DNA from: Deltaproteobacteria bacterium
GTDB taxonomy: Bacteria; Myxococcota_A; Polyangia; JACRCY01
Reading direction: 5' to 3'
Assembly: GCA_016218785.1 (NCBI GenBank)
Contig: JACRCY010000058.1
Location: 1-37,699, forward strand
DNA: 37,699 nucleotides
The position numbers and the translations under genes were made by a program. The notes beneath the pieces were generated by a model. The model was given only the letters and a program-made list of their open reading frames with translations, had not been told where the DNA came from and ran no database searches. This document shows, in pieces, positions 5,787-33,538 of the stretch. Position 1 is the stretch's first letter, and every line of letters begins with the position of its first letter.

Positions 5787-7799
5787 ATGGCCCTGATCGC
5801 CGGCGCCGCCGTGCTGCAGGCCACCGTCGCCCGGGCGCAGTCCTACGTCATCCCACCCGGCCAGGAGGCGCTGCTGGCGGAGATGCTCGGGCGCGAGGCG
5901 GCGCTTCCCGACGGCTGCCGGTGGGCGCGGGCGTCCATCGACCTGTCGGTGGCCACGTCACACTACCTGTGCGGGTCGCCCGCGCGCGCCGTCTCCCTCA
6001 TACTGCGGCACCAGCAGGCCCCGGTTGCGGCGGGCGTGGCGACGCGCCATTTCGTCATCGGCCGCGGCGAGGGATCGCCCCCCGACGCGCTGCTCGCCGC
6101 CGTGGCGGAGCGCGTGCGCGCGAATGAGGGCCGGTGGCGCTGGGCCAAGGTCACCGAGCCGCCCCCGGTGCGGCTGCGTCCGGGGCAGTCGGTCCTCGCC
6201 TGGTTCGCCCGCTGGGACGTCGCCGTGCCCGCGCTCGCGTGGCTCGTTCTGCTGGCGTGGCTCGCGGCGAATGCCCGTCGACTGGTGGCGGCGCGACGCG
6301 ATGCGCTCGTCGCCGCGGCGTGCTTCGTCGTGGCCGCCGCAGTGGGGCTCGCGGTGCCATGGGGGCCGCTCGATTTCGCGGAACCCGAGCGACTGCAGGC
6401 GCTCTGGTCGACCTCGCCCGACCTCCAGGAGGACTTCGTCGCCATCACGCTCCCGCTCCAGCTCTTGCAGGCTGCCGGTGTCCCGGGAGGGGCGCTTGTG
6501 CGGGTCATCGGTCCTTTGTGGGGCGCGCTGTCCGTGACCGTCACCTACCTACTCGCGCGGAGCCTGGGCGCCGGCCGTCTGCCGTCGCTGGTCGCCGCGG
6601 CGGCGGTCTGTCTCCTGCCGGCGCACCTGCGGTACTCCGGGACAGTGCCCTTCACCATCGCCGGGGGGGCGCTCCTGGCCGGGGCCTGCGCGGTGGCCTG
6701 CAGCCGCTTCTCGCCCTGGCGCAAGCTGCCGTTCGTCGCGGCGGCGACGGTTCTGGCCGGGTACGCGCGTCCGGAGCTCGTCCTCACCGCCGCACCGCTG
6801 TCGCTCCTGGTGCTGGCGGACGGGCCGTGGGCGGTGCGGGCCGCGTGGGTGGCGCTGCTGCTCGTGGCGCTCGGCCCCCACGCATGGGACGTCGGCTTCC
6901 ATCGCACCCGGCCCGAGTTCACCGGGGGCTGGGGTGAGTTCGCGGTCGCTTCGCTGTGGGGCGCGCGCCTGGGAGCGGGCGCGCTCCTCGCCGTGGGCGC
7001 GGTCGGTCTGCTGGCGGGGCGTGCCCGATGGCTGCACCGCGCGGCACTGGCGTCGGCCGTGGCGGTGCTCGCCTGGGCCTACGCGCGGACGATCATGGAG
7101 GAGAACCCCCTTTGGGGACACTGGCGCTACGTCCTGTCCGGCGTGCCCCTGCTTGCGGTGGGCTTGGCCCTCCTGCTCGAGCGCGTGACGAACGCCAGGG
7201 CGAAACGGATCGCTGCGGCAACCGCGGCCGCCGTGCTGGTCGGGGCGCTATGGCTCGCACGCGAGGCGGTGACTCGTCCCATCGACATTCAGGTGGATTT
7301 TCAGTACGCGCGCGCCAGCGTCGGGAACGTCGTGTCGCGCTACCGGCACGTCGCGGTCGTGACGAGCGACGACCTGACCGGCTCGGCGCGCCGGAGCATG
7401 ATGGACGCGACGTCGTTGATGGCGTTTGGCCTCCGCCTGGGCCCCCTGGCGCGACCGGTCGAATGCCGAGCACAGCCGCTCCAGGCCGGGGTTCAGGTCT
7501 GGTCGCTCCGCGCGCTCCTCACGCGCTGTCCGGAGGCGCCGTCGCTCGCCGCCGCCGCCGTCTACCTGGGCGCCTACCGACCCGAGGCGGAGTTGGCCGC
7601 GCTCCGGGGCCGCTTCACGCTCGTGCCCATCGAAGAGCGCATGGTGTCGGCCGCCCCCGTCGCCCAGCGCTTCGACACCCAGTGTCCGCGGCTGCCCTTC
7701 CGCTTCGTGGGCGGCCGGCTACAGGACTGCCCGCTGCGGCTCGGGTGGTACCGGCTGGCTCCAGCGCCGCTGCCCTCCTCGGCTCCTGCCCGCGAGTAG
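5787..7799 (+). CDS. Polytopic membrane protein, possible GT-C-type glycosyltransferase, with N-terminal soluble module
   Basis: ORF 5664..7799. Start set at ATG 5787 (MALIAGAAVLQATVARAQS, signal/anchor-like); GTG 5781 or 5664 are possible. A ~110-aa soluble segment is followed by many hydrophobic helices (VPALAWLVLLAWLAA, ALVAAACFVVAAAVGLAV, LWGALSVTVTYLLA, AAWVALLLVALGP, LLAVGLALLL) and a ~190-aa C-terminal soluble domain. Function is inferred from topology and neighbours only. Confidence 0.55.
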   Translation: MALIAGAAVLQATVARAQSYVIPPGQEALLAEMLGREAALPDGCRWARASIDLSVATSHYLCGSPARAVSLILRHQQAPVAAGVATRHFVIGRGEGSPPDALLAAVAERVRANEGRWRWAKVTEPPPVRLRPGQSVLAWFARWDVAVPALAWLVLLAWLAANARRLVAARRDALVAAACFVVAAAVGLAVPWGPLDFAEPERLQALWSTSPDLQEDFVAITLPLQLLQAAGVPGGALVRVIGPLWGALSVTVTYLLARSLGAGRLPSLVAAAAVCLLPAHLRYSGTVPFTIAGGALLAGACAVACSRFSPWRKLPFVAAATVLAGYARPELVLTAAPLSLLVLADGPWAVRAAWVALLLVALGPHAWDVGFHRTRPEFTGGWGEFAVASLWGARLGAGALLAVGAVGLLAGRARWLHRAALASAVAVLAWAYARTIMEENPLWGHWRYVLSGVPLLAVGLALLLERVTNARAKRIAAATAAAVLVGALWLAREAVTRPIDIQVDFQYARASVGNVVSRYRHVAVVTSDDLTGSARRSMMDATSLMAFGLRLGPLARPVECRAQPLQAGVQVWSLRALLTRCPEAPSLAAAAVYLGAYRPEAELAALRGRFTLVPIEERMVSAAPVAQRFDTQCPRLPFRFVGGRLQDCPLRLGWYRLAPAPLPSSAPARE

Positions 7800-7901
7800 C
7801 GGCGCCGGGGCGGCTCCCCCGACAGCCAGGACGGCGAGCGCGCCCGGGGTCGTCAGGACCAGCGAGGTAGTCGTCACCGTCGGACGTTAGCGCACGCGGA
7901 T

Positions 7902-10216: not shown

Positions 10217-10228
10217 GGCTCGGGCTGC

Positions 10229-11494: not shown

Positions 11495-11679
11495 CTCGCC
11501 CCAGGTGGAGGGCGCCCGTTCACCACCGCGCCCCGCACGCGCCACGACTCTAGCACGAACGCGCGAGGGCAAATAGGCACACTGTCATCGGCGGGTGTAC
11601 GGCTCAGGGCACACGGACTGGCTGGATCCACGCGCGGCGCCCGGCGGCGTTGGTGACCACGGCGCGCTCCAATCCGGGG

Positions 11680-12152
11680 TCACCGCCAGGTGCAGCAGCA
11701 GCGGAACGCGAGCGCCGTGGACGAGGCCGACGACGAGTACGCGTCGCAGCTACCGTTGCCGTCGGCGCGGTAGGAGCCCGCCCCGGAGGGGGACGAAGTC
11801 CATTCCCAGTTGTCCGTCATGTTGAAGAGCAGCATCGGCATCCCGTAGCAGGCGTCGTACCACTCCCCGTCGGCACAAAGACGCTTGCCGGCGGCGTCGT
11901 GCTCCACGCTTCGATCATCGACGGCCAGGCACCCACGGGCGGCATGTCGGAGCCGAAGGGCGCGGTCCACGCCGAGGGGATCGGCAGCCGGTCCACCGTC
12001 CTCTCGGGCTTCACCGTGCTCGGGTACGACGTCTCCTCGGCCACGGCCGACAACCAGGACGGCACGAACGGCGTCGACGGGTCGAACGGCGGCGGCGGCG
12101 GCTCGAGGGGCCCGGCGGAAATGCAGTTCAAAGCGCCCACGCACCTGGGCAC
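11680..12152 (-). pseudogene. FGE-sulfatase / C-type-lectin-fold-like domain protein, apparently frameshifted near 11900-11915
   Basis: The C-terminal part (frame of ORF 11680..12183) reads GKRLCADGEWYDACYGMPMLLFNMTDNWEWTSSPSGAGSYRADGNGSC..STALAFRCC. This resembles the GNVWEWT...GFRC end of FGE/SUMF1-type domains; third-position G/C is 18/20 at 11821-11880. Upstream, the coding signal switches to the frame of ORF 11817..12152 (20/20 at 12001-12060; ..DRLPIPSAWTAPFGSDMPPVGAWPS). No single intact frame spans both parts. Confidence 0.3.
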
Positions 12153-12167
12153 GAGTGACGCCGCCCG

Positions 12168-15100
12168 TCAGCGCTCGATGCAACGCAGGAGCAGCTCGAT
12201 GGCGCGCCGCCTGGGTTCCGTGTCGGGCGGCGTCGCCGGCCGGTAGGACACGGCGAACCTGGTCCCGGCAAGGAAGCAGCGCTGCGCTCGCGCCCGTGGC
12301 TCGATGAAGAGGGCCATGGAATCACTCGACGCCTGCAAGTGCACGGAGACCGCGTACTCCTCGAACGCGAGGTTGGAGATCGCGAAACCGGCGAGGCGAC
12401 GACTCGCCGGCGCATGCGTCGAGTACGGGCGCAGGCGCTGCGCGATGTGCCTCTGCCACGGCTCCGGCGCGGGGCTGGCGGCCAGCCAGGGCGAGCGCTC
12501 GATGGGAGGTGGGGCCATGATCTGCTCGTCGGTGAGGACGAGAGGGGTGGGCCCGGCCAGCGCCAGGTAGTCGGGGTGGAGGCCGCGGCACTCGTGTGTC
12601 AGGTCGCAGCCGCCGCAGAGTTCCGGTGGCTGCGCGCCCCTCGACGCGGGGCCCCGTGCGTGGTCACCAGCGGCGACGAACTCGAGTCCCGGGATCATCC
12701 GCAGCGCACACAGCGGAACGTCGGCCGCACGGAGCCTGAAGTCCGGCACCCGGCGTCTGATCTCGCGCATGGCCCAGGCGACCTCGCCCAGTCGCGGCCA
12801 GAGCAGGTCGACGCGCTTGCGGTCCATTCCGGCGACGAAGTGCATCAGGCAGCCGTGCGTGACCGCGGGGTGCGGGCCATCCGCCCCGAGCCCGGCGATC
12901 CGTCCGCAGTCCGCCACGATGCTCGCCATGGCCGGCCGCAGGAACATGGTCGCGAGCCGCACCCGCAGCCCAAGCCGGCGGCAGTTCTCGAGCGCGGCGA
13001 GCTTGGCCTCGGTCGCGCCGGCCAGGCCGAAGAGGAGGTCCGACAGCTCGCGATCGAAGCTGATGAAGGTCAAGAAGACGTCGGTGAGACCACGCCGCGC
13101 GAGGTCCGCCGCGAAGCCGGCCTCCGCCAGGCGCATGCCCGTCGTCGACAGGTGGATGCGCGAGAAGCCACGTTGGCGGGCGAGATCGATGAGTTCGGGC
13201 AGCGCGGGATGCGTGGCCGGCTCCAGGTGGGAGCCGAAGCCGATGCTCGAGGCGCCTCGCTCGTGGAGTAGCTCGATCTGGCGCCGCACGTCGTCGTGTC
13301 GGTCGTGCTCCCCGGCGGCCTGCTCGGTGTGGTCGCTGCACCAGGCGCACTGGAGGTCGCAGGGGCCGCGCACGGCCAGGAATCCCGCCGTCGTCACCGG
13401 GTCCGCCTGGTACGGCCGCGGCAAGGACGCGACCCACCGCCGCTCCTCGCCCTCGGCCGTGGGCCGGCGGGCGCAGAACCGCAGGTCCGCCAGCCGCCGC
13501 CAGAGCTCGGGCTGGACGGCCGCCTCGTGCCACCACAAGAAGACCCGGCCGCCCACCGCCGCGTGCAGTCTGCCCCGGCGAAGCACCAGCAGGTTCTGCT
13601 CCTCGACGACCATCTCGTCGCCCTCGGCGACGAGGCGGAGGAGATACCCTCCCCCGCTGACCCTCCCCGGTCGATAGCGGAAACGCGCGCGCGGATCGTC
13701 GTCCGTCACCAGCTCGAGCGCTCCCTCTCGCTCGCCGACCAGCATCGCCCAGGGGTTGCGCAGGCTGCGCAGCGACTCCTCGACCGCCGCCGCGCCCCAG
13801 CGCTCACGGGCGGCAGCGACCAGCGCCTCGGCCCCCGCGAGCGTCTCGCCACAGGTGAGCGAACAGGGGAGGTGCGAGATCCAGGCGCCGCTGGCCGGGT
13901 TGGGCAGCCACGGGACCGCGCCGGGCTGGGCCAGACGCAACCGGATCGAGTGCCAAGTGTAGCTCCTTCGCTCGCGATTCGGAGTGCTCGCGAACTTCCG
14001 GGTACAGCACCGTGGATAGCCGAGCAGCCTCCCGAGCTCCTCGGCGGTCGCGAGCGAGGCGGTCTCGTCGGCGCACTCCTCCTCCGCCGTGGTCAGGCGC
14101 ACGGCTACCTCCACCTGTCGTCTGTCGCGGCCGATGAATAGTTCACGGGCCGTCGTGCCTGGCAGGCGGCGGTACTCGACGACTGGCGCGAATCGCTGCA
14201 GCCACGCCGCGTCAGGCGTCTCGCCGGGCTCGAGCCGGATCACGGGCTTGGCCCCGATCTCGAACGCCAGGTAGTGCGAGCACGATGGTCCGAGGGCATC
14301 GCCGGCCGGCGCGGCGGGCCCTGAGCGCTCCGCTACGGCCGCCGGGGGGACCTCCACCCGTGAGTCGTCCGTCGCGAGCCAGGTACGGGCCCTACCGAGG
14401 AGTTCCCGGGGCTCGACGCGATCAGGGGCCTCGATCACCGCGTCGACCAGGGCTCCCGCGAGCGCCAGGCGATCTCGAGCGGCCGGTACCTCCCGCCGGA
14501 GCGCCTCGACGTCGGCGGCCAGCGCGTCCCCCTGACCGCCGACGCCTTCGTCGATGCGTAGGAACAAGCTGGCCACGGCGTCGAGCGCGGCGCAGGCGCT
14601 CCGCCAGGGCGTCTCGTCGGCATAGAACTCGCGCCCCGCGGTGTCGAGCAGTCGGTCGGGGTAGGCGGGGACGAGGAGCCCGTCGCGCTTGGCCAGCGCG
14701 AAGAGCGGCAAGCCGGGGTACAGTCGCAGCCGCGACGTGAGCAGCTTGCCGCAGACGCCCTCGAGCCCCCCCGACCCGCTCATCGCCAGGTTGAGCGCCA
14801 GGTGCTCCGGCTTGGTCCACGGCGTGAGCAGGATCAGGCTCAAGCCGCCGTGCGCGTGGAAGCCGAACTCGCGCGGGTAGAGCGCCTCGAGCTCGAAGAG
14901 GGTCTGAGCCGCCAGCAGGTTCTCGCCCCACCCGATGCCCTTGTTGAACAGGTCGAGCTCTTCTCCGACGAAGCTCTCGATCCCGACCAGACACACGTGC
15001 AGCTTGTGCGAGCTGCCGGCCAGCGAGCGCAGCGCCCGCTCCAGCGCCGGGCGGCACGCGAGCAGGCGGTCGGCACGCGCGTCGAGCAGGAAGTCGGCAC

Positions 15101-15932: not shown

Positions 15933-16012
15933 GGGTCTCGTGGCCGTCGTCCTCGACCCGGAAGTGGCCGAGAAGATCGTGCGCCACCTGTTATGCCGAG
16001 TCGTCGGTTGTC

Positions 16013-16026
16013 CGGAGTCGACTCCG
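16013..16026. promoter_or_regulatory. Perfect 14-bp palindrome (candidate operator) in the divergent intergenic region
   Basis: CGGAGTCGACTCCG is its own reverse complement. It lies ~85 bp upstream of ATG 15932, next to three CACCGG motifs at 16047-16089. Confidence 0.3.
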
Positions 16027-16392
16027 TCGGGAGACGTGTGTGTCGCCACCGGTGACGCCGGGTACCAGTTCCACCGGAAACACCGGTGTCCAGGGACCCA
16101 CCCGGTAGCGGCGAGCCCGTGTGCCCCGGGAGCGGCCGCGAGCGTGTAACGCGTGATGGCGGTGCCGCCCGCGGCGCGCGGGGCCGCCGGCGGGGGGAGG
16201 GCCACCGCCGCGCCCAGGGAGTGGTGTGCATGGCTGGGGCTGATCGGGGCGGCGCCAGCGTAGGCCGCCAGCTCGCGGCGGCGACGGGCGAACCGTCAAT
16301 GATCTCGGGAACTACGAGTTCTGGCGAGGCACAGGCACCGGGCGTCCGTCCATAAGCGCAACTGGTCAACCCGCGCCGCGGATGCTACCTAT

Positions 16393-17838: not shown

Positions 17839-19547
17839 GGGTCGTCCTCTGCGCCGGCACTCCGGCCGAGCATGCCATCGGCAGCCTCGATGCCACGGGG
17901 TCGAGAGACTTCGCCGCCGACAGCTACAGCTACGCTATCGGGCTCCTCAAGGCCTGCGCGCTCGCGGATCCCGACGTGGCGGCCGGGCTGGAGATCGGCC
18001 TCAAGGAATTCCCTGTCGGCCGCTCCCAGCTCTCGCTCATCGAGGAGCAGTTGCAAGAGATCCTGGCCGAGCGACCGGACGTGGTCGGCTTCTCCACCTA
18101 CTGCTGGAGCCTCGACCTCTTCCTCGACGCGGCCGCCCGGCTCAGACGCGAGCTCCCCGAGTTGCTGATCGTCATGGGTGGCCCCTCCGTCTCGCATGAG
18201 GCGCGCGCCCTGCTCGAGGCCCACCCGCAGGTGGACATCATCGTGCGCGGCGAGGGCGAGCTCGCGTTCGCCGCGCTGTGCCGGCAGCGCTTCCGCGCGC
18301 CCGCGGAGGTCCCGAACGTAGCCTGCCGTGGAGCCGACGGGCGAGTCTCCGAGCACCCGGCAGAGGATGCGCCGGAGGATCTCTCCGCGCTGCCCTCCCC
18401 GTACCTTACAAGGACGCTGCGGCCGAGGGCACGGAGCCTGCTCATCGAGCCGTCCCGTGGCTGCCGTTTCCGTTGCGGCTTCTGCTCCTGGTCGACGCGC
18501 GCGGGCCAGCTTCGCTACCAGCAGCCCGCGCGCATTGCGCAAGAGATCCGCTGGGCGCGCGAGCACGGCTACCGGGGGGTCAACTTCTGCGACACGGCCG
18601 TCAACCACGACACCGGGCAGCTGCGCAGCCTCTGCGACACCATCCGTGCCGAGGATCCGGAGGGGCGCCTGTCCCTGTCGCTATTCCTGCGGCACGAGGA
18701 GCTCGACGCGGAGCAGCTGGAGATCCTCGCGCGCATCCGTTGCGACGAGATCATCATGGGGCTCGAGTCGACCAACGCCGCCGCGCTCCGCGCCTGCGGC
18801 AAGCCGCCCCTCGACCCGTCCACCTTCGAGGAGAAGCTCGCGGGACTGCGCGCCGCCGGACACCGGGTCACCCTGAGCATCATGTCGGGGCTGCCAGACG
18901 ACTCGCTGGCGGGCTTCGCGTCGACCCTCGAGTACCTCGAGGGGCTGCTGCAGCGGCAGCCCGACGCCGTGAACTTCGTGTGCTGCTTCTGGCTCGCCGT
19001 CTTGCCCGGCACTCGCTTCGCCGAGCTCAGGGAGCGCTACGGTTTCCGCATCGAGCCTCGCGGAACGCCCTACCTCCTGGAGAGCCGTGATTGGTCGCCC
19101 GAGGAGCTCGAGGCGGCGGCCCGCCTCCTCGTCGAGAAGGCGCAGCGCGACCCGCGATTCCGGTGCGAGGAGATCCACCGCGCAGTCGTCGCCATGGCGC
19201 TGGGAGAGACCGCGGTGGCGCACGCGGCCGGGGAGCTGGCGCCGCAGGAAGCGCTGCTGCGGCCGTGGCGGGTCGGCGAGACCCGTGGGGGTTGGGTCCT
19301 GGTGGAGATGCGCGCCGCGCCACCCTCCGAGGGTCTGGCGACGGCTTGCTTCGAGCCGGCCCCTGGCACGCCTGGCACCGCCATCCACGTCACCATCGCG
19401 GCGCGCGATGACCGCCGGCCGGCCTTCGCCCAGACCCGGTCCCACAGCGTCTACTACCGCGGCCGTCCCCGCAGCCATGCCGCCCTCGAGGCCCTCGGGC
19501 ACCTCCTGGAGCAGGTCGTGGAGCTCATCGGCGCGAACGAGACGTGA
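17835..19547 (+). CDS. B12-binding radical SAM enzyme (LPSPYL paralog family) with C-terminal shared module
   Basis: Frame of ORF 17142..19547 trimmed to GTG 17835 (VRVVLCAGTPAEH). Motifs: VVGFSTYCWSL, IVMGGPSVSHEA, IIVRGEGELAF, LSALPSPYL, EPSRGCRFRCGFCSW, MGLESTNAAAL, IMSGLPDDSLAGFASTLEYL. The C-terminal 86 aa (19287..19544) form the shared module. Confidence 0.9.
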   Translation: MRVVLCAGTPAEHAIGSLDATGSRDFAADSYSYAIGLLKACALADPDVAAGLEIGLKEFPVGRSQLSLIEEQLQEILAERPDVVGFSTYCWSLDLFLDAAARLRRELPELLIVMGGPSVSHEARALLEAHPQVDIIVRGEGELAFAALCRQRFRAPAEVPNVACRGADGRVSEHPAEDAPEDLSALPSPYLTRTLRPRARSLLIEPSRGCRFRCGFCSWSTRAGQLRYQQPARIAQEIRWAREHGYRGVNFCDTAVNHDTGQLRSLCDTIRAEDPEGRLSLSLFLRHEELDAEQLEILARIRCDEIIMGLESTNAAALRACGKPPLDPSTFEEKLAGLRAAGHRVTLSIMSGLPDDSLAGFASTLEYLEGLLQRQPDAVNFVCCFWLAVLPGTRFAELRERYGFRIEPRGTPYLLESRDWSPEELEAAARLLVEKAQRDPRFRCEEIHRAVVAMALGETAVAHAAGELAPQEALLRPWRVGETRGGWVLVEMRAAPPSEGLATACFEPAPGTPGTAIHVTIAARDDRRPAFAQTRSHSVYYRGRPRSHAALEALGHLLEQVVELIGANET

Positions 19548-19674: not shown

Positions 19675-19719
19675 GGAGCGGATCGTTGGGTCTCGCGATG
19701 TGGTCTGGCAGCGCGCCGT

Positions 19720-20644: not shown

Positions 20645-20665
20645 AGCGCGGAGTGGCGCCTCCCT

Positions 20666-22213
20666 TCAGCGGGTCGTCCCGGTGGGCCCGCCGCGTCGGC
20701 CGGGACGCGGGCCTCCGGTAGGGCGCTGCTTCTGGCCCAGGTACAGGTAGTCGATCCCGCGCTGCTTCAGGACCGCGCCCAGGTCGTCCATGCGCTGGCG
20801 CACGGTATCGGGACCGATCCCGTAGGCGAAGCCGATGGGGAAGTGGCCCGAGGCCCGCACGAGGTCGCCGAGCGTCGCCGGGAGCGTCTCCGGGTCGAAG
20901 TGCTCCACGCGGATCCCGAAGCGATCCGGATGCATCTCTGTCTCGGAGCCGATGGAGAGGTAGAAGGGGTTGGGCGAGAAGTGGACCTCGGCCGTCTGGG
21001 CGTAGATCTCCTTGAGGACCTGGAGGTTGAGGCGGTGATCCTCGTCGGTCTCTCCGGGGAAGCAGGTCAGCATGTCGAAGCGCATCGACACGCCGATCCG
21101 CGCGCCGTGGAGGATCGTCTCCTTGATCGCCGTGGGGTCCGGCCGCCGCCGCATGAGCTGGAGCACCCGGTCCGAGAAGCTCTGCACGCCGAGCTTGAGC
21201 AGCACGCAGCCGGAGCGGCGCATGGCGTCGAGCCGCGCGGGCGTGAGCCCCTCCGGCCCGCAGAAGCTCTCCCAGGTGAAGCGGTGGCGCCGCTCCACGA
21301 GGAGCTCGCAGAACTCGTCCGTCCAGGCGGCTGACCCGTTGATTTGATCGTCGTGGAAATGGAAGTTCTGGTTGTGGTAGCTGGCGGCCGCCCACTCCAT
21401 CTCCGCGACCACCGCCGCCGCGGTCCGCTGGCGGAACCGCGCCTTGCTCGTCTCGGAGCAGAAGGCGCAGCGCCGCGCGCAGCCGCGGCTCGCCAGGATC
21501 GGCACGAAGTTGTTGAGGGTCATCCCGGCGAGGGACGGGCGGGGCAGGGAGTCCACGGGCAGCGGCGCGGCCGGGGGGCTGCCCGTCACCGCTCCGTCCG
21601 TCGTGAGCCGGTAGACACCCGGCAGCGGGACCGGCTCCGCCCGGCTCTCGAGTTGCTCCACGAGCGGTGCCACGACCCCCTCGCCATCGCCGACCACGAC
21701 TGCGTCGAAGACGCCGGCCCGGAGGAGGAGGTTGCGGAGCGGCTCGCAGCCGAGGTTCGGCCCCCCGGCGGCCGTCCGCTTGCCGAGCTTCCGCAGCCGA
21801 CTGGCGAGGGCGGCGGCAAAGTACTGCGTGAGGACGTTGAGCGAGAAGAGAAAGACCTCACCGCCGTCGCGGATGCGGAGCAGGTGCTGGTCCGCCTTCC
21901 GCACGATCGTCTCGGCGAGAGGCGGGAGTCGATCAAATGCCTCGGGGTGGACCACCTCCAGGAGCAAGCGCGGGTCGACGCCGTCCCCCACGCCCCCGCC
22001 GATCCGCCGCGACAGCTCGAGGATGTAGTCGTCGTAGAAGTCGGTCCCCGCGTGGTGCTCCGCGAAGGAGATGTCGTGGCAGAGCGTCTGGTGGCCGGCC
22101 TGCTGGAGGACCGCCTGGAGGTAGGCGAGGCCGATGTTGAGGAACTCGACCTCGCCGTGCGGGGGGCAGTGGACGAGGACGACCTGCCTGCCGGCGGGAG
22201 GCGTCGGGCTCAC
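20666..22213 (-). CDS. B12-binding (class B) radical SAM enzyme
   Basis: ORF 20666..22243 trimmed to GTG 22213 (VSPTPPAGRQVVLVHCPP), which forms a GTGA overlap with the upstream stop. Motifs: NIGLAYLQAVLQQAGH, AAGGPNLG, VVVGDGEGV, ILASRGCARRCAFCSE, LKLGVQSFSDRVL, LTCFPGETDED. Confidence 0.9.
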   Translation of the reverse strand: MSPTPPAGRQVVLVHCPPHGEVEFLNIGLAYLQAVLQQAGHQTLCHDISFAEHHAGTDFYDDYILELSRRIGGGVGDGVDPRLLLEVVHPEAFDRLPPLAETIVRKADQHLLRIRDGGEVFLFSLNVLTQYFAAALASRLRKLGKRTAAGGPNLGCEPLRNLLLRAGVFDAVVVGDGEGVVAPLVEQLESRAEPVPLPGVYRLTTDGAVTGSPPAAPLPVDSLPRPSLAGMTLNNFVPILASRGCARRCAFCSETSKARFRQRTAAAVVAEMEWAAASYHNQNFHFHDDQINGSAAWTDEFCELLVERRHRFTWESFCGPEGLTPARLDAMRRSGCVLLKLGVQSFSDRVLQLMRRRPDPTAIKETILHGARIGVSMRFDMLTCFPGETDEDHRLNLQVLKEIYAQTAEVHFSPNPFYLSIGSETEMHPDRFGIRVEHFDPETLPATLGDLVRASGHFPIGFAYGIGPDTVRQRMDDLGAVLKQRGIDYLYLGQKQRPTGGPRPGRRGGPTGTTR

Positions 22214-23910
22214 TCGTGCCTCTCGATCGCGGCGGCGATCCACTTCAGCAAACGACCGACCGATGGATCGCTACCCAGGGAGCCATCGTCCGGATCGCCT
22301 CGCGGCGCCAGCCACAGGAGATCATGCCGCGGCGTCCGGAGGAAGCACGGGCGCGCCTCGTCCCGTCGCCGGACCTGGACCTCGAGTTGCCGGCCCTGCT
22401 TCTCGAGGCGCAGCACCGGCCACCCCGCCATCGAGGCTCTCCCCCGCAGGACCCACCCTTCGGCCACCTCGGCTCCCGGCGCGAGATCGGGCAACAGGGT
22501 GCCGAGGTCGAGCGCCCCATCGCCTTCGAGGCCGAGGCGGGCCGCCGGGGCCGAAGGCGGCGTCAGATCCTCGAGGCCCGCCAGGTGCCGACCGGGCCAA
22601 GGATCCTCCCACAGGAAGAGGTCTCGCGCCTCGTGCTCCATCATGAAGCGCACCGCTCGCGCCAGATCCCGCTCCGGGAAGCTCGTGCTGGCGCGAAGGT
22701 AGGGAGCGCCTGGGCGCACCGTCTCGATCCCGAGTTGGCCGCGCTGTGCGTCGAAGGCCGACCCGGGCGTCACGATCATCCAGAACACGCGGACCGCCTT
22801 GATCCGGTCGCGCCGCCCGCGCACGCGCAGCCGCGCGAGGTAGTCGAGGGTCCGGCGGAACCCGTCGAGGCTGTCCGCCGGGATGCCTAGGATCACCGAG
22901 ATCGTCACCGGCCCGAGGACGCTCAGCGACTCGATCGCGCCTTCGAACCGGCTCTCGTCGAGAGGGCTGCGTCCGATGGAGCGGAGCACGGCGGGGTCCA
23001 CGCTCTCGAGCCCCACGTTGAGCTCGTGCGGTCGGATGCCGGAGAGGATCTCGACCTGCTCCTGGCGGAAGTGCTGGTGGCTGATGAAGAAGCTGAAGGC
23101 GACGCGCTGGCCCGGGACCTCGGCGCGGATGGCCTCCGCCAGCGCGCCCATGCGGGCCTCGTCGAAGTTCAGCGCCGAGTCGAGGATGAACACGTGGTCG
23201 CAGCGCCGCTCGACGGCGAAACGGACCTGATCGCGCATCACGGCGGGCGCGAAATACCGCACCTTTCCCATGAAGTTCTTCCAGGCGCAGTACTTGCATC
23301 GGAAGACGCAGCCGCGGGAGTACTCGAGCATGAGGTTGCTGCGCGGGGGATCGATGAGGCCGCCGAGGTACGGGGAGGGGAGCGTGCCGAGGTCGGCGAT
23401 CGGTGGTCGGGGCGCCGATTCGCGGAGGCTGCCGTCGGCCTCGCGCCACGCGAGGCCCGGGATCGCGCCCGCGTCCCCGAGGCCGCGCTCCAGCACCTCG
23501 GCGAGCGTCTCCTCGCCCTCGCCCAGCACGACGGCGTCGAGGGCCGCGAATCGCTCCAGGGTGGCCCGCGGCGCGAAGGTGACCGACGGGCCGCCGGCGA
23601 GGATGCGCACCCGCGGCGACAGTTGCTTCACTCGACGAACCACGGGCTCGAAGGCGTCCAGATCCCAGCAGAAGAGCGAGATGCCCACGACCTCGGGATC
23701 CGAGGCCAGGATCTCCTCGGCGGCCCGCGTGGGGAGGACGGGGTCGGCGAGGTCGAGCGGGAACTCCCGAATCGCCACCTCCACGTCGGGACGCCGGCCC
23801 GCGGCGTAGGCGGCGAGCGCCGGGAGAGCCAGGTTGTACCGCCGCGCCTCGGGGCCGGTGCCCGGGTGCTGCACCGCCGTGCCGGCAAGCGCGAGGCGTT
23901 TCGGCATCAT
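22210..23910 (-). CDS. B12-binding radical SAM enzyme (LPSPYL paralog family) with C-terminal shared module
   Basis: ORF 22210..24951 trimmed to ATG 23910 (MMPKRLALAGTAV). The upstream 347 aa of the ORF are Arg/Pro-rich read-through across the neighbouring gene. Motifs: VVGISLFCWDL, ILAGGPSVTF, VVLGEGEETL, LGTLPSPYL, EYSRGCVFRCKYCAW, VGLESVDPAVL, ILGIPADSLDGFRRTLDYL. The C-terminal 83 aa (22213..22461) form the shared module. Confidence 0.9.
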   Translation of the reverse strand: MMPKRLALAGTAVQHPGTGPEARRYNLALPALAAYAAGRRPDVEVAIREFPLDLADPVLPTRAAEEILASDPEVVGISLFCWDLDAFEPVVRRVKQLSPRVRILAGGPSVTFAPRATLERFAALDAVVLGEGEETLAEVLERGLGDAGAIPGLAWREADGSLRESAPRPPIADLGTLPSPYLGGLIDPPRSNLMLEYSRGCVFRCKYCAWKNFMGKVRYFAPAVMRDQVRFAVERRCDHVFILDSALNFDEARMGALAEAIRAEVPGQRVAFSFFISHQHFRQEQVEILSGIRPHELNVGLESVDPAVLRSIGRSPLDESRFEGAIESLSVLGPVTISVILGIPADSLDGFRRTLDYLARLRVRGRRDRIKAVRVFWMIVTPGSAFDAQRGQLGIETVRPGAPYLRASTSFPERDLARAVRFMMEHEARDLFLWEDPWPGRHLAGLEDLTPPSAPAARLGLEGDGALDLGTLLPDLAPGAEVAEGWVLRGRASMAGWPVLRLEKQGRQLEVQVRRRDEARPCFLRTPRHDLLWLAPRGDPDDGSLGSDPSVGRLLKWIAAAIERHE

Positions 23911-23993
23911 GACTCGTTCATTCTCCGCGATCTCCCGCGGGTTGTCGAAGGCGCACCGAGCAACCACGGCGTCGGTCCGCAGGTGCCCGGCGG

Positions 23994-25343
23994 CTATGCA
24001 ATGGGCTCGACTTCGGCGAGGCCGAAGCGCAGCACGTAGGCGCGCGGCAGGCCGAGGCACCACCGCGTCTGCGAGCACTGAGCGCAGCGCTTCGCCTTCA
24101 CCCAGGGCTTGCGCGTGTCCTCGATGCCGATCTCGGCGTCCCGCTGGACCGGTACGGCGCCGCCCGCGGCCTCGTTGCCGCCGCCCCGGCGCCGCAGGCT
24201 GGCGTCGACGAGGCAGGCGGGAATCGACGCGTGCGACGAGCTGAGCAGCGGCTCGCACACGACGCCGATCGCGGAGGCGCGGCGCGCCGCCGCCTGGAGC
24301 TTGGGTGCGAGCTCCGTGTAGGCCACGAGCACGGCCGGGGCAGCGGGCCGGTGGTCCGGGCACATCGTGATCGAGAAATGGATGCGCGGGGGCCGGGGAC
24401 CGAAGAGCTGCGGCACGGCGCCGACCCACTCGTCGAGGTGGTCGACGTTGTGGCGGTTCACGACCAGGTTCAGCACCACGTCGTGCTGGGCGGCGAGGAG
24501 GTTGCGGATGCCGGCGACCGCGCGGTCGAACTGGCCGCTCGAGCCAACGCACAGGTCGTAGACGTCCGGCCGCGCACCGTGGAAGGAGACGAAGAAGGCC
24601 AGGCGACGCGAGGGCGGCCACGGTGGGAGCGCGGCGGCGTCGGCGAATCCTACGGCGTTGGTCTGGATCTTGACCTGCAGCAGCTCGGGCCGGGCGAGGA
24701 GTCGGTCGACGACCTCGGCGAGCCCTGGCCACAGGGTGGGCTCGCCGCCCGTGAGCGTCGCGATCATCCGCGGGAACTGCGTGACGGCTGCGTCGAGCCA
24801 CGCGAGCACCGCCTCGATGGTCGGCTCCGCGTGGGGCGGGGGGGCCGAGCAGAACGGGCACGCCTGGTTGCAGCGCGAGGTGAGGCGGAGGAGGACCTCC
24901 GTGGACACGGCCTCGCCGGTCGGGCTCACCAGCCGCTCGATGCCGCACCACGAGAAGCCGGCAGGGCCGGAGGCGCCGGTGGTCGCCGCGAGGGCGTCCA
25001 CCCCGACCTTCGCCTCGAGCACTCGCGGGAAGCCGGCCTCGAGGGCGCGCAGCACGCCCACGAGGTCGTGCAGCTGGCCGAGCTGGTTCGGGGACAGACG
25101 GGCGGATCCGCGGTAGCAGAGGCCGTAGCGCGCGGTGCGCAGGATGTACCTCCCCGCGGGATCCAGCGGCTTGACCTCGACCTCGAGCGGCCGGCTGCTG
25201 GTGCCGCGCAAGGTGAGCGTGAGCACCCCGTTGAGGGCTGAGGCAGACACGACCGCGACCCCGGCCCGCTCGGCCGCGGCCACCAGGGTCCGGAGCCAGG
25301 GCGGCCCCGCCGGCCGGGGCTCGCCAGCGTCCGCGGGGGTCAT
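23994..25343 (-). CDS. Radical SAM enzyme (CxxCx5CxG paralog family) with N-terminal shared module
   Basis: ORF 23994..26351 trimmed to ATG 25343 (MTPADAGEPRPAG), an ATGA overlap with the upstream stop. The shared module covers residues ~27-103 (25035..25265). Motifs: LRLTSRCNQACPFCS (CX3CX2C), TLTGGEPTLWPG, QTNAVG, C-terminal KRCAQCSQTRWCLGLP. Confidence 0.85.
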   Translation of the reverse strand: MTPADAGEPRPAGPPWLRTLVAAAERAGVAVVSASALNGVLTLTLRGTSSRPLEVEVKPLDPAGRYILRTARYGLCYRGSARLSPNQLGQLHDLVGVLRALEAGFPRVLEAKVGVDALAATTGASGPAGFSWCGIERLVSPTGEAVSTEVLLRLTSRCNQACPFCSAPPPHAEPTIEAVLAWLDAAVTQFPRMIATLTGGEPTLWPGLAEVVDRLLARPELLQVKIQTNAVGFADAAALPPWPPSRRLAFFVSFHGARPDVYDLCVGSSGQFDRAVAGIRNLLAAQHDVVLNLVVNRHNVDHLDEWVGAVPQLFGPRPPRIHFSITMCPDHRPAAPAVLVAYTELAPKLQAAARRASAIGVVCEPLLSSSHASIPACLVDASLRRRGGGNEAAGGAVPVQRDAEIGIEDTRKPWVKAKRCAQCSQTRWCLGLPRAYVLRFGLAEVEPIA

Positions 25344-27646: not shown

Positions 27647-29433
27647 CAACCCCACGTGCCCTCGTTGCGACGCAGGAGACCGACTACCTCCCGCATCAGA
27701 GCATCGAGCCCCGGGCCGCGCAGTGGCCTGGGCACGTCACCTTGGTAGTAGACGTTGAACCGCGAGGTGTGCGCGAAGCAGGGGCTCGCTGCGTTGCGGC
27801 GATCGAGGCGCACGCAGACGACCGCCTCTCCCGTGTGCCGCCCGAAGGTGAGCACGGCGACCCCGTCACCGTCGAGCAACGGCGTCAGCGCGCGGAGCAT
27901 CCACCCCGCCCGGAAGGCCCCCGGCACCCTCGGCGCGACGAGGCGGCGGAGATCGTCGGCCGGCCCGGGCGCTCTCGGGTCGTGGAGGGTGTAGGCCCCC
28001 TCGGGTCGCTTGACGAACAGCGGGCGGCACACGCGCAGCTTGTTGAGGTACGAGAGCGCGCGCTGCAGATCGATCCGCGGGAAGGTGCCGACCTCGAGGA
28101 CGTAGGGGATCCCGCGCCCGGGGACGCGGATGCCCAGCTCGGCGCGTCGTCGCCACAGCGTGGTGCCGGGGAAGACCTGGAGCAGCGACACCAGCACGGC
28201 CCCGATCGGCGACCCCGCAGGCTCCGCCGCCAGCTCCCCGAGGTAGTCCATGGTCCGCTGGAACCCGTCGAGCGTGTCACCCGGGAGCCCCAGCACCACG
28301 CCGACGACCGTCGGCGGCGACGCGGCCGGGTCCGGCGCCAGCCGCCGGAGCAGCCGCAGGGCCGCCTGGAAGCGGCCGCGGTCGAGGGGCTCCCGGTCGC
28401 TCTGCCGCATCGCGCCCTCGGACAGCGACTCCATCCCCAGGAGCACCTGCTGGGCCCGGAGCCGTCCCAGGAGCTCGACCTGCGCCGGCGTGAGCAGCTC
28501 GTGGCGGAGGTTGTACGTGTAGCGGAGCTCCCGCCCGGGGTCCGCGGCCTCGGCCGCGGCCACGAAGCGCTCGAGCGTGCTCTGCTCGTAGTTGATCGCC
28601 GAGTCGATCAGGGTGACGTGCCGCACCTCGTTCCTGAGCGCCCAGCGGAGCTCGTCGACGAGGCGTGCCTGCGAGAAGGCCCGGCGCGTCTTCGCCGAGT
28701 TCCAGGCGCAGTAGCCGCAGCGGTTGAGACACCCGCGCGACAGCTCCAGCATCATCCCCTCGGGCGCGGGTTGCACGATTCCGGCGAGGTAGGGCGACGG
28801 GATGGTATCGAGGTCCGCGACCAGCTCGGCCGGGGGGCCGCTGACCACGTCTCCCGACGGGCTGCGGCCGAAGACCCCCGGTGGCAGGTCGTGCGCGAGG
28901 GGGAGGCCGGTCGCGCGCCACCGGCCCAGCAGCTCGACGAAGGAGCGCTCGGCCTCCCCGCCGACGACGTGGTCCAGGGTCGCGTGATCGCGCAGAAGGG
29001 CCGGCGCCATGTCCTCGACGGCGCGGCCGCCGACGACGGTGAGCGTCTCGGGTCGCCGTTGCTTGAGCCGCGCACAGGCCTCGAGGATCGCGTCGACGTT
29101 CCAGCAGTAGGCCGAGAAGCAGACGGCGTCGGGATCGCCGGCGGCGAGTTGCTCCACGTGGCGCTCGCTGAGGCGGAACTCCTCGTGCGGTGCCTCGGTG
29201 TCGGCGGGCAACGAGTCGTCGACCAGATCGAAGATCTCGATGCGGCAGTCCCGCTGGATCTCCGGCGTGGCGTCGCCGGCGGCCTTCAGGTAGGCCGCGG
29301 CGAGGCTGTAGGGTGCCTGCGCGAGCGCATCCCCGTAGCCGCCGAGGCTTGGCGTCGGCCCGGCATCCGCGTCGACGAGGCGGCGATGCAGCCCCACGAT
29401 CCGCACGTGCGCCACCGGCCGGTCCGTGGTCAC
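27646..29433 (-). CDS. B12-binding radical SAM enzyme (LPSPYL paralog family) with C-terminal shared module
   Basis: ORF 27646..29676 trimmed to GTG 29433 (VTTDRPVAHVRIVG), a GTGA overlap with the upstream stop. Motifs: AVCFSAYCWNV, TVVGGRAVED, HVVGGEAERSF, LDTIPSPYL, ELSRGCLNRCGYCAW, LGMESLSEGAM, VLGLPGDTLDGFQRTMDYL. The C-terminal 87 aa (27649..27909) form the shared module. Confidence 0.9.
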   Translation of the reverse strand: MTTDRPVAHVRIVGLHRRLVDADAGPTPSLGGYGDALAQAPYSLAAAYLKAAGDATPEIQRDCRIEIFDLVDDSLPADTEAPHEEFRLSERHVEQLAAGDPDAVCFSAYCWNVDAILEACARLKQRRPETLTVVGGRAVEDMAPALLRDHATLDHVVGGEAERSFVELLGRWRATGLPLAHDLPPGVFGRSPSGDVVSGPPAELVADLDTIPSPYLAGIVQPAPEGMMLELSRGCLNRCGYCAWNSAKTRRAFSQARLVDELRWALRNEVRHVTLIDSAINYEQSTLERFVAAAEAADPGRELRYTYNLRHELLTPAQVELLGRLRAQQVLLGMESLSEGAMRQSDREPLDRGRFQAALRLLRRLAPDPAASPPTVVGVVLGLPGDTLDGFQRTMDYLGELAAEPAGSPIGAVLVSLLQVFPGTTLWRRRAELGIRVPGRGIPYVLEVGTFPRIDLQRALSYLNKLRVCRPLFVKRPEGAYTLHDPRAPGPADDLRRLVAPRVPGAFRAGWMLRALTPLLDGDGVAVLTFGRHTGEAVVCVRLDRRNAASPCFAHTSRFNVYYQGDVPRPLRGPGLDALMREVVGLLRRNEGTWG

Positions 29434-31280: not shown

Positions 31281-31405
31281 CTCGGCCTCGCCGCGCGGGG
31301 CGCGGGCCCGGCGCGCCGGAGGCGGTCGCTGGTGCTCCAGTCCGCACCGGAACCTTCGCTCACTGTTCGACGGGCGAGGAGCAACGCGTCACGCTCGACT
31401 GGCTC

Positions 31406-31433
31406 AGTATAGCAGCCGACCCGGAGGCGGCAA
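31406..31433 (-). promoter_or_regulatory. Sigma70-like promoter candidate for the six-gene rSAM operon (31280 to 20666)
   Basis: Minus strand reads TTGCCG (31433..31428), 16 nt, TATACT (31411..31406). This would give a ~120-nt leader before GTG 31280. Confidence 0.35.
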
Positions 31434-31458
31434 CGGAGCGTGCGCGCCGCTGCCTCGC

Positions 31459-31487
31459 TTGACCACCCTCGACACCGGAGGCATGCT
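31459..31487 (+). promoter_or_regulatory. Sigma70-like promoter candidate for the nitrogenase-like operon
   Basis: TTGACC (31459..31464), 17 nt, CATGCT (31482..31487). A CACCGGAG motif lies in the spacer. The strong SD GGAGGGGAG precedes GTG 31532. Confidence 0.3.
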
Positions 31488-31531
31488 GACTGCGTGACGG
31501 ACGAGCCCGCGACGTCCCCCTCGGAGGGGAG

Positions 31532-33538
31532 GTGAGCCGCCGCGACGCCAGCAGCCCGGGCGGGCGTGCCGTCCTGCAGGGCAAGACGCTGGTCGGCGGT
31601 CCCCGGAGTCGCGCGCACTTCGCGGCCCTGCTCGGCCTGGACCGGGTCGCCCCTCTCGGGCAGACCCGCGTCGTCGCCGTCGCCTGGGTCGGCGATCACG
31701 TCGAGATCGAAGTCGCCGGGGTGGACGACCAGAGCGTGGTCTTCTTCCTCGACCGGTTTCAGGCCGACAAGCCACGGCTCTTCGCCACCGAGCACCTGGT
31801 GCTCTACTACCGCGGCGTCGGCATGTGGCCGGAGCTCGAGGAGCGGCTGCGCGCCGTCGAGCTCGGGCGCCTCGGGGAGCGCACCATCGAGGACCTCGCC
31901 GAGTTGATCGCCGCGGACACGGACGTCGACCCGGCCCACGACCGCCCGCCGCGCGTCAGCGCCGAGGGGCAGGACGCCTTCGACCGCCAGTCGCACCTCA
32001 GCACCTGGGCCTCGCCCCACGTCTGGTACCAGTTCTTCGGCGTCGCCGAGATCTGGCGGCAGCGACTCGACTCGCTCGACATCTTCGAGCGGTGCACCTT
32101 CATCCAGCACTGTGACCGCGAGTGCGTGCAGGTCGCGCCGCGCACGTACGTGCCGATGGTCGACGGAGTGTTCTACCCCTGGCTCGAGCGGGTGCGGCGG
32201 ATCGGCCGCGCGCGTCGACGCCCCTCTCCCGCTGTGGGCTCGGCCGCGACCCGGCCGCGGGGAACCGGTGAGCCGTTCGTGGACGATCCGAAGCACTCGA
32301 TGTGCACGACGGACATCACCGAGGCGGACGTGATCCTCGGCTCGCAGGAGAAGCTCGTGCGCGTCCTCGACGACGTGCTGGAGCGCGGCGTGGATCGCAC
32401 GCTGTTCCTGAGCTGCACGTGCGTCCCGTTCGTGACGGGAGAGGACGTGGAGTCGATCGTCAAGCGCTACCGGGCGAAGACCGATCGGCCCTTCTTCTAC
32501 CTCACGACCACCCCGCAATCGAGCGTGGGGGTGTTCCGGGACGTGCTGGTGCACCGGCGCCGGGCGGCCGAGCAGGCGGTCCCGCCCGGCGAGGTGACGC
32601 CGCACGCCGTCAACCTCGTCGGCTTCGCGCGGGATCCGGGGCTCGAGGAGCTCCGGGGGCTGCTCGCCCAGCTGGGGGTCAGTGTCAACGCCGTGTTCGT
32701 CCCCGAGATGGACTCCGCGGTCGTCGACACCCTGCCCCGAGCGTCGCTCCACGTGCTGTACCCGAACGTCCTGTGGCAGAGCATCTACGACCAGCTCCTC
32801 TTCGACTCGCGCATCACCGCGGTCTCGCCGGCGGCGCCGTACGGCGTGGCGGGGACGCAACGATGGCTCGAGAACGTGGCCGCGGCCGTGGGCCTGACGG
32901 TGACGGCTGGCGACGTCGTCGCGCGGGGTCTGGAGCCGCTCCGAGGGGTGTGGGACCGACTGAGGGCCGAGGCCGCCGGCACGCGGCTGGCGTTCGTGGT
33001 GGGCGCGGACGAGGCCTACCGCCTGGGCGACGCCACCACGACCTGGGGCGTGCCGCTGATCCCGATGCTCGAGGAGATGGGCTTCGGGCTCGAGGTCCTC
33101 ATCGGCGTCGCCGATCGTACGGCCGCGCGCGACGTGGCGACGCAGATCAACGCGGTGTTCGCCCACCCGGAGCGCCACGGCATCAGGGCGTTCCGTGACC
33201 GCGCTCGGCTCGACTCGCTCCTCGAGTCGGGGACGTTCGCCGCGGTCTACTCCGATCACCTCTTCGACCGTCGCCTGACCGCGGCGGGCAAGGCGCAGTT
33301 CAGCCTCCAGGAGTTCGAGAAGGGGGTCGGGGGGGCGGTCCGGACCCTCCGCCGCCTGCTGGAGGTGTGCCGGCTGCCGCTGTACCGCCGGTACCGGCGC
33401 CACCTGCCGGCCGCGGCCCAGCCCTACGCCGCGCCCATAACGCGTGGCACGAGGCGAGGGGGCCGCGAGGGGCTCGCGGGGCCGGGCGGTCCCGACAAGC
33501 TCACGGGCCCAGGCGCCCTGGTGGATGGACGACGGTGA
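31532..33538 (+). CDS. Nitrogenase component-1-type oxidoreductase family protein (NifD/NifE/BchN-like) with N-terminal shared module
   Basis: 668-aa ORF; GTG 31532 directly follows GGAGGGGAG. The shared module covers residues ~45-127 (31664..31912). The core reads FIQHCDRECVQ, then SMCTTDITEADVILGSQEKLVRVLDDVLERGVDRTLFLSCTCVPFVTGEDVESIV. This matches the sT.l.E.d.vfGG..kL...i.v..tC....iGDD pattern, followed by Rossmann-like VNLVGF and LAFVVGAD segments. Confidence 0.75.
   Translation: MSRRDASSPGGRAVLQGKTLVGGPRSRAHFAALLGLDRVAPLGQTRVVAVAWVGDHVEIEVAGVDDQSVVFFLDRFQADKPRLFATEHLVLYYRGVGMWPELEERLRAVELGRLGERTIEDLAELIAADTDVDPAHDRPPRVSAEGQDAFDRQSHLSTWASPHVWYQFFGVAEIWRQRLDSLDIFERCTFIQHCDRECVQVAPRTYVPMVDGVFYPWLERVRRIGRARRRPSPAVGSAATRPRGTGEPFVDDPKHSMCTTDITEADVILGSQEKLVRVLDDVLERGVDRTLFLSCTCVPFVTGEDVESIVKRYRAKTDRPFFYLTTTPQSSVGVFRDVLVHRRRAAEQAVPPGEVTPHAVNLVGFARDPGLEELRGLLAQLGVSVNAVFVPEMDSAVVDTLPRASLHVLYPNVLWQSIYDQLLFDSRITAVSPAAPYGVAGTQRWLENVAAAVGLTVTAGDVVARGLEPLRGVWDRLRAEAAGTRLAFVVGADEAYRLGDATTTWGVPLIPMLEEMGFGLEVLIGVADRTAARDVATQINAVFAHPERHGIRAFRDRARLDSLLESGTFAAVYSDHLFDRRLTAAGKAQFSLQEFEKGVGGAVRTLRRLLEVCRLPLYRRYRRHLPAAAQPYAAPITRGTRRGGREGLAGPGGPDKLTGPGALVDGRR

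Follow-up and report, generated by a model that had tools for sequence, protein, structure and literature searches.

The stretch of DNA analysed here, called the window throughout, comprises the 37,699 nucleotides of contig JACRCY010000058.1 from a member of the Deltaproteobacteria (assembly GCA_016218785.1), and the subject of this report is a small protein domain, referred to as the module, that recurs in many of the enzymes it encodes. The GC (guanine plus cytosine) content of the window is 72-74%, and third-position GC was used as a filter to separate real genes from many spurious open reading frames (ORFs), followed by annotation with Pfam and NCBIfam. By these two resources, 13 radical S-adenosylmethionine (rSAM) proteins are encoded in the window, eight of them with a B12-binding or B12-like N-terminal domain, one a double rSAM and one an rSAM-methyltransferase fusion. 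They are accompanied by a nitrogenase-like pair (31532-33538 and 33367-34905), both members of which contain an Oxidored_nitro domain in Pfam. The original prediction had described a cluster-specific module of about 80 residues fused to seven or eight otherwise unrelated proteins in eight segments (a-h). All eight segments translate as given there and are in frame with genes backed by third-position GC. The copies retained after the present analysis are listed below.

Module a, 12171..12437, minus strand: C-terminus of a 1242-aa "giant" protein (gene 12168-15896); RLRPY pre-motif included.
Module b, 19254..19544, plus strand: C-terminus of a B12-binding rSAM enzyme (gene ~17835-19547); LLRPW pre-motif included.
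Module c, 22213..22497, minus strand: C-terminus of a B12-binding rSAM enzyme (gene 22210-23907, 565 aa, identical to database protein P0001).
Module d, 27649..27942, minus strand: C-terminus of a B12-binding rSAM enzyme (gene 27646-~29450).
Module e, 25032..25310, minus strand: N-terminus of an HxsC-like rSAM enzyme (gene 23994-25343, 449 aa, identical to P0069).
Module f, 31658..31888, plus strand: N-terminus of the nitrogenase-like alpha subunit, NflD-like (gene 31532-33538).
Module g, 5910..6131, plus strand: divergent copy directly after the signal-peptide-like N-terminus of a polytopic membrane protein (gene 5664-7799).

The module spans about 85-95 residues, and in the C-terminal copies it reaches some 13 residues further upstream than originally drawn, through a conserved LLRPW-x2-G. 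The hidden Markov model (HMM) envelope of copy a is 12171-12392, and the span given for copy e takes in an extra N-terminal helix. The giant host of copy a consists of an N-terminal half with no assigned function and an rSAM domain.

Pairwise identity among copies a-f is weak (20-37%), yet the top non-self matches of each copy are the other module positions. Leave-one-out HMMs built within the window were scored against 943 composition-matched decoys, which were shuffled or reversed versions of the same proteins. No decoy reached the scores of copies a (10.7 bits), b (19.0 bits), c (18.6 bits), d (27.7 bits) or e (10.0 bits), and three of the 943 scored at or above copy f (4.1 bits); segments g and h stayed at noise level in this test. 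A richer profile of 86 domain instances was then obtained by iterating on database matches, and each host architecture was excluded from it in turn. Copy a was recovered at 32.7 bits with the giant architecture left out (best decoy in that run, 6.8), copy e at 34.8 bits with all HxsC-like hosts left out (best decoy ~8), and copy f at 18.0 bits with all nitrogenase-like hosts left out (best decoy ~8); the tandem-array and membrane groups described below were likewise recovered by profiles from which their own architecture had been excluded. By profile comparison, then, copies a-f are mutually significant and read as one shared domain, and the C-terminal copies have true counterparts in the N-terminal and nitrogenase-like ones.

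Copies g and h required profile-profile comparison. Copy g scores only 6.4-11.3 bits with the HMM, which is borderline. Its region is homologous to the N-terminus of protein P0048 (BLAST E 3.5e-9), and a two-sequence profile of copy g and P0048 aligned with the module profile over 72 columns (hhalign Prob 92.3%, E 5.4e-7); on this comparison copy g is accepted as a divergent member. Segment h (30102-30374, minus strand) failed with the HMM and with hhalign (Prob 0.5%, E 0.13, 9 columns) and was rejected. Thus, the eight-copy module originally proposed stands for a-f against decoys and for g by hhalign, and falls for h; where the comparisons succeed, they are far below the E value of 0.01 at which mutual significance had been placed in doubt. 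Segment h is a conserved internal region of the 616-aa rSAM-methyltransferase fusion, between the Cys-rich end of the rSAM part and the methyltransferase domain. A 632-aa homologue of this fusion, 28% identical over almost its full length, is encoded in L027, one of the sister loci considered below.

The DNA segments encoding the module have no meaningful nucleotide similarity to one another and form no DNA-level repeats; the copies are therefore old and reflect neither recent duplication nor an assembly artefact. Hosts b, c and d are end-to-end paralogues, with 32-35% identity over ~545-573 residues, module included. The number of independent architectures in the window is therefore five (the B12-rSAM trio, the giant, the HxsC-like rSAM, NflD and the membrane protein), not seven or eight. 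It could still be argued that no shared module exists and that the similarity is due to chance or composition at 72% GC, or to the ordinary C-terminal region of class B rSAMs, since pairwise scores are very low and the tails of paralogues b, c and d were inherited with the whole protein. Against this, composition-matched decoys never reached the observed scores, the HxsC-like, NflD and giant copies were recovered by profiles excluding their own architecture, 56 database proteins match, and neither DUF4080 nor any other Pfam family does. This alternative is already refuted and retains practically no probability.

The fold of the module was modelled with AlphaFold2 from two starting points. Copy d, for which the alignment contained the six window copies only, gave a predicted local distance difference test (pLDDT) score of 84.3 and a predicted template modelling (pTM) score of 0.73, with strands at residues 3-10, 16-24, 30-37 and 51-56 and a helix at 66-82. 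The full-length HxsC-like host of copy e, modelled from a 38-sequence alignment, gave pLDDT 87 and pTM 0.83; its N-terminus contains a helix (15-26), strands at 31-37, 40-45, 53-59 and 73-78, and a second helix (85-104), followed by a disordered linker (118-129). In both independent runs the module is predicted to have an antiparallel sheet of four strands, against which a single amphipathic helix packs at the C-terminal end. Its sequence signature can be written as [LLRPW-x2-G]-x4-GW-x-L ... R-x-D-x3-P-x-F-x-R-T-x-x-F-[ND]-V-x-Y ... with NE at the end of the helix. The LLRPW-x2-G element of the C-terminal copies lies ~13 residues before the GW that opens strand 1, and in these copies the helix closes with a conserved (R)NE. 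The core conserved across the family is GW-x-L ... P-R-x-x-x-x-P-x-F-x-R-T-x-R-F-x-V-x-Y ... L, and the invariant polar/aromatic motif is placed in the loop between strands 3 and 4. Across the family there is no conserved Cys or His ligand and no catalytic signature, and the module is set apart from the enzymes by Pro/Ala/Gly-rich or disordered linkers.

Searches for a known family were negative. No Pfam family matched the window copies at E<=10, and none recurred among 70 module members at E<=1. NCBIfam matched only the catalytic domains of the hosts, and the newer precomputed Pfam annotations (the release with PF27806 HxsD) give catalytic domains only, or nothing, for module-bearing proteins; for the exact host of copy c, they give only B12-binding and Radical_SAM. 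Likewise, Pfam covers only the B12-binding and Radical_SAM regions of host b, whose module scores 68 bits against the family HMM (copy c, 74 bits). A profile search of PDB sequences returned nothing below E 0.05. With the isolated module model, Foldseek found no match at E<=1e-3, only non-significant kinase N-lobe look-alikes. With the full-length model of host e, only the rSAM core aligned (~235-245 columns), to SkfB, viperin, anSME, CteB and SuiB, the peptide maturase SkfB being the nearest solved structure (E 4e-10). Three specific candidates were also rejected. The RiPP (ribosomally synthesised and post-translationally modified peptide) recognition element (RRE), or PqqD-like domain, gives no match in sequence, and the module lacks its winged helix-turn-helix of a three-stranded sheet and three helices, as the original prediction had anticipated in setting the motif apart from PqqD. 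The ordinary class B rSAM C-terminus (DUF4080) is not matched on any host: b, c and d give only B12-binding and Radical_SAM, and the domain also occurs on NflD, HxsC-like, giant and membrane hosts. The N-domain of canonical HxsC does not correspond either, as HxsC from Aeromonas and Sphingobium plasmids score <0 bits against the module HMM. The module is a genuine, previously undescribed mobile domain.

Contrary to what had been supposed, the module is not confined to this cluster. With the six-copy profile, 1.84 billion representative proteins were searched exhaustively by HMMER, and 56 matched at E<=1e-3, two of them proteins of the window itself. A word-indexed homologue search found nothing with the six window copies and only 13 short stand-alone proteins with 70 copies. 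In the 53 non-window representatives, a Pfam census counted Radical_SAM in 20, B12-binding in 9, Oxidored_nitro in 4 and TPR in 2, and the rest have no Pfam domain. The architectures encountered are as follows.

B12-rSAM with a C-terminal module.
P0030, a homologue of the module-less rSAM at 20666-22243, with the module present.
Nitrogenase-like alpha subunits and HxsC-like rSAMs with one or two N-terminal modules.
Other rSAM classes, including SPASM rSAMs.
Signal peptide, two modules, polytopic membrane domain and TPR (P0014, P0051).
Stand-alone proteins of 86-145 aa.
Proteins consisting entirely of tandem modules, 4-7 in number.

The tandem-array proteins (P0003, P0005, P0011, P0015 and P0055, all of Myxococcota type) contain 4-7 modules joined by ~50-residue helical linkers, and P0007 has three copies in one protein. 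Two of the array genes (L022 10001-11974 and L023 9971-11962) have FG-GAP/ASPIC, ParA-like, aldo-keto reductase and DnaB genes as neighbours. These loci are not Nfl/rSAM clusters, and the idea of the arrays as a scaffold encoded together with the enzymes was rejected. The stand-alone proteins P0042 and P0062 adjoin AAA+/LTD genes. P0012, a 1048-aa protein from a low-GC organism, is a fusion of c-like and b-like B12-rSAMs with a single C-terminal module; the domain is therefore not restricted to high-GC lineages, and a single copy can suffice for two catalytic units. The mobile, non-catalytic accessory domain originally envisaged, placed at either terminus of different enzymes, is thus borne out, and it exists in stand-alone form as well.

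Five sister loci (L024-L028) were recovered through homologues of the HxsC-like enzyme, and the module is distributed in them as follows.

At the NflD N-terminus: L024, L027, L028.
At the N-terminus of the HxsC-like enzyme: L024, L025, L027, L028.
At the C-terminus of homologues of the giant N-terminal half: L024 once, L026 three times.
On a SPASM rSAM: L028.
In a stand-alone gene, and in a homologue of the copy-g membrane protein: both in L027.

The L027 homologue of the membrane protein carries the copy g region too, and the orthologues of copy f score 27-29 bits in L024, L027 and L028. The region of module e is conserved in 37 homologues. Orthologues keep their copy at near-catalytic-domain conservation, with identities of 0.74 in the module versus 0.76 in the rest of the protein, 0.45 versus 0.50, and 0.42 versus 0.46; host d and its orthologue P0006, for example, are 74% identical in the module and 76% in the remainder. 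In these loci, the gene for the module-bearing HxsC-like rSAM adjoins, in divergent orientation, the operon of the module-bearing NflD.

With regard to the giant, it is a fusion whose first ~800 residues are homologous to separate proteins of 640-1014 aa in the sister loci, where the module follows directly as the C-terminal end; the window protein has an rSAM domain inserted between the N-terminal region and the module. The homologues of its N-terminal part are the following.

L024, 10081-12153.
L026, 2926-5970, 7903-9816 and 14059-17079.

The nitrogenase-like genes link the window to the Group VI nitrogenase-like (NFL) systems. According to passages of a 2026 review (PMC13474568), these systems have no characterised member and their gene context is of little help for substrates; suites of rSAM genes around them are described in passages of Meheust et al. 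2020 and of the same review (Chem Rev 2026, PMC13474568). A genome scan with the NflD-like protein returned 14 loci, from a Guaymas deltaproteobacterium, a Polyangiaceae metagenome-assembled genome (MAG), a Bradymonadales MAG and 11 Elusimicrobia MAG loci, the last including the groundwater MAGs of Meheust et al. The NflD/NflK-like pair of the window is 29-34% identical to the 11 Elusimicrobia Group VI loci (tblastn, E 1e-36 to 7e-69), and the syntenic position of NflK is conserved. Divergence in an alignment of five NflD sequences was too great to design a pattern from it. The N-termini of the Elusimicrobia NflD proteins form a clear family of their own (...GW-x-L-x-S-L-C...V-R-[VL]-G-L...L-A-F-x-L-L-P-K-G...), which aligned over 71 columns with the module profile built without nitrogenase-like hosts (hhalign Prob 94.7%, E 6.2e-8). 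No protein of the Elusimicrobia loci other than NflD carries the module. On the simplest reading, the domain would be ancestral to the Group VI NflD N-terminus and would have spread to rSAM partners, and also to the secreted membrane protein, in the deltaproteobacterial/myxobacterial lineage. Neither an N-terminal NflD domain nor its presence on rSAM partners is mentioned in the passages from PMC13474568 and Meheust et al. 2020.

The window resembles Group VI NFL systems in that its NflD/NflK-like pair lies among 13 rSAM proteins, and it additionally carries HxsB and HxsD. It differs from the sister loci in lacking NflH, which adjoins NflD in L025 (9025-9846), L027 (8883-9698) and L028 (8893-9702). 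A tblastn search of the window with a sister-locus NflH gave no match, so the gene is not on the contig and may lie off it. NflD in the window is divergent from the gene for the rSAM-methyltransferase fusion, whereas in the sister loci NflH is located immediately upstream of NflD instead.

Several other genes of the window are of note. HxsB is encoded there (TIGR03978, 527.6 bits; cut-off 370), and HxsD scores 49.8 bits against a cut-off of 50 and has a precomputed match to PF27806 HxsD. The window HxsD (gene 36419-37039) is 206 aa long, versus ~100 aa for canonical HxsD, and its acidic, Ala/Pro-rich tail contains the short motif DDFFADPLGIGVPWEQRF at 36563-36592 (minus strand), which is kept in the L025 HxsD as DDYLEDPLGIAVPWEEKY and is absent from the Aeromonas and Sphingobium proteins. 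From its sequence, this motif looks like a docking peptide. The protein at 25340-27655 (minus strand) has two rSAM domains in one polypeptide, neither with the module; the N-terminal domain is similar to a B12-type P-methyltransferase, the C-terminal domain to HxsC (TIGR03977, 70.6 bits). The rSAM at 20666-22243 (minus strand) is also without the module and ends in a Gly/Pro/Arg-rich tail. The module was apparently lost from it, because its homologues P0030, P0019 and P0033 carry a C-terminal copy; a genome scan with this central rSAM as query recovered no relatives. A B12-like rSAM gene at 1-~1050 (minus strand; GSRGCPFACTFCPV) is cut at the contig end and lacks its C-terminus.

Further genes of the window encode a protein with DUF362 and a 2x[4Fe-4S] ferredoxin (4009-5685), a beta-propeller, a GT2 glycosyltransferase, a UDP-glucose dehydrogenase and two polytopic membrane proteins. 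Assignment of the membrane proteins as GT-C glycosyltransferases was rejected as being without Pfam support, the PMT_2 cut-off being reached only by a membrane protein of a sister locus. The largest intergenic gap (595 bp, 11573-12167) lies just downstream of the giant gene and contains a possible 53-aa ORF at ~11683-11841 (minus strand), MPMLLFNMTDNWEWTSSPSGAGSYRADGNGSCDAYSSSASSTALAFRCCCTWR, which is Ser/Gly-rich with CCC at its end. It may be a precursor peptide, or else spurious; no homologue was seen.

In its distribution, the module behaves in a manner similar to RREs (PqqD-like, PF05402), which are likewise small and non-catalytic, N- or C-terminal on several different tailoring enzymes per cluster, also stand-alone, and present at about one copy per enzyme unit. 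The module occurs at either terminus behind linkers, at about one copy per enzyme or adjacent enzyme pair, with stand-alone versions. It differs from RREs in its predicted four strands and one helix versus a three-strand/three-helix winged helix, in the failure of Foldseek to find any RRE structure, and in secreted copies and tandem arrays, which are atypical of RREs. The NifX/NafY/NifB-C-terminal domain (PF02579) is another small domain that occurs alone or fused to an rSAM working with a nitrogenase-like scaffold, but the module has no Pfam match to it, a different predicted fold and no conserved Cys/His ligand. Cohesin/dockerin pairs and the docking domains of nonribosomal peptide and polyketide synthases are also small and common to many enzymes of one system, and tandem-array proteins exist in the module family as well. 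However, the module has no sequence or fold relationship to them, and, unlike cohesin and dockerin, the same domain type is found on the scaffold-like arrays and on the enzymes, with the arrays not encoded in rSAM/Nfl clusters.

By analogy with RREs, it is tentatively proposed, at somewhat less than an even chance, that the module is a non-catalytic recognition domain giving each enzyme a hold on one common substrate or carrier. Through it, each module-bearing enzyme, or enzyme pair with one copy, would bind more readily to a single partner specific to the cluster, for which the maturing substrate or its carrier is the most plausible candidate. One molecule would then be worked on successively by the many tailoring enzymes, by the nitrogenase-like reductase and, last, by the periplasmic membrane protein. 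RRE logic would thus be carried out by an unrelated fold. Several points weigh against this proposal. Only 5 of the 13 window rSAM proteins have the module, and an identity of 20-37% is low for paralogous domains binding one identical ligand. No run of >=3 H-x-S motifs, as in an HxsA/HxS-repeat substrate, occurs in any frame of the window, and no small or uncharacterised gene proved to be conserved across the five sister loci. In addition, the arrays and stand-alone copies in unrelated Myxococcota contexts suit a general protein-protein interaction module at least as well.

The main rival, possible but rather unlikely, is that the modules bind each other, homo- or heterotypically, and assemble NflDK and the rSAMs into one complex that channels intermediates. 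Several enzymes of one pathway share the domain, the HxsC-like and NflD genes carrying it are neighbours in the sister loci, the tandem arrays of 5-7 modules look scaffold-like, and P0007 has three copies; the array genes, on the other hand, lie outside rSAM/Nfl clusters. Hydrophobic conservation in the strands, read from the alignment, is on one face only, which suggests no obvious dimerisation face. Signal-peptide-like N-termini, judged by eye, precede the module in the membrane protein at 5664 (copy g), P0014, P0051 and P0048, and these copies should, from their sequences, be periplasmic. Being behind such N-termini, they cannot dock cytoplasmic enzymes on the other side of the membrane and could meet an exported product; for copy g, this speaks against the multi-enzyme complex that had been offered as one explanation of the module. 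Moreover, NflD is the sole carrier in the Elusimicrobia loci, and the function of the module therefore needs no second module-bearing protein. Because of the periplasmic copies and the lone Elusimicrobia NflD copy, recognition of a common ligand is favoured over docking between enzymes.

It has also to be considered whether the partner is a redox protein or HxsD, both of which are improbable. Recruitment of an electron donor or cluster-delivery protein common to the hosts, such as the DUF362-ferredoxin or NflH, would fit the fact that every cytoplasmic host in the window is an Fe-S enzyme (rSAM or nitrogenase-like), as well as the 20/53 and 4/53 representatives with Radical_SAM and Oxidored_nitro, the ferredoxin gene of the window and the related ferredoxin-type segments of several loci. 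However, the secreted copies and tandem-array proteins are not Fe-S proteins, and most window rSAMs, together with NflK and HxsB, have no module, though all the rSAMs need reduction. The other proposal, put forward in the original prediction, is that the modules bind the acidic tail motif of the long HxsD, which would act as a common adaptor or carrier. It draws on the presence of HxsB and HxsD in the window, on the tail motif common to the window and L025 and absent from canonical HxsD, and on the report that canonical HxsC binds HxsD in pull-downs (PMC13128918), the module of the HxsC-like enzyme occupying the position that the N-domain takes in canonical HxsC. The window is like the His-Xaa-Ser (HXS) system of that study in having HxsB, an HxsD that scores just below the family cut-off, and two HxsC-like rSAM domains, and HxsC of that system is an enzyme with an N-terminal region of ~100 residues that works with a small partner protein. 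Unlike it, the HxsC-like proteins of the window score at best 70.6 bits versus a cut-off of 267.9, and neither the canonical HxsC N-domain nor HxsD resembles the module (all scores <0). Of the five sister loci, a single one was found to have HxsD within +-10 kb, and L006-L008 have none; HxsD is therefore unlikely to be a universal partner, and no HxsD lies close to the exported copies or to the NflD copies of the Elusimicrobia loci either.

With the domain common to NflD and its rSAM neighbours, these enzymes are for the first time tied to one another by a molecular feature other than adjacency. Clusters of this kind can be found with a specific profile of the domain, which is also a small, soluble-looking bait for pulling down the partner or substrate of Group VI enzymes. 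It is conceivable, albeit rather doubtful, that the module represents a second, structurally unrelated kind of substrate-recognition element and that the Group VI reductases act on one tethered macromolecular substrate. Its occurrence on NflD, on as many as a dozen rSAM enzymes and on a periplasmic membrane protein would then point to such a substrate. If so, this substrate would be a peptide, a protein or a carrier-bound intermediate, passed from enzyme to enzyme and then exported, and the Group VI reductases would not act on a free tetrapyrrole, contrary to the current proposal. Should the module prove to be a recognition element, the few domains that guide tailoring enzymes to their substrates would gain one with a new fold, and genome-mining tools relying on RRE detection would miss such clusters.

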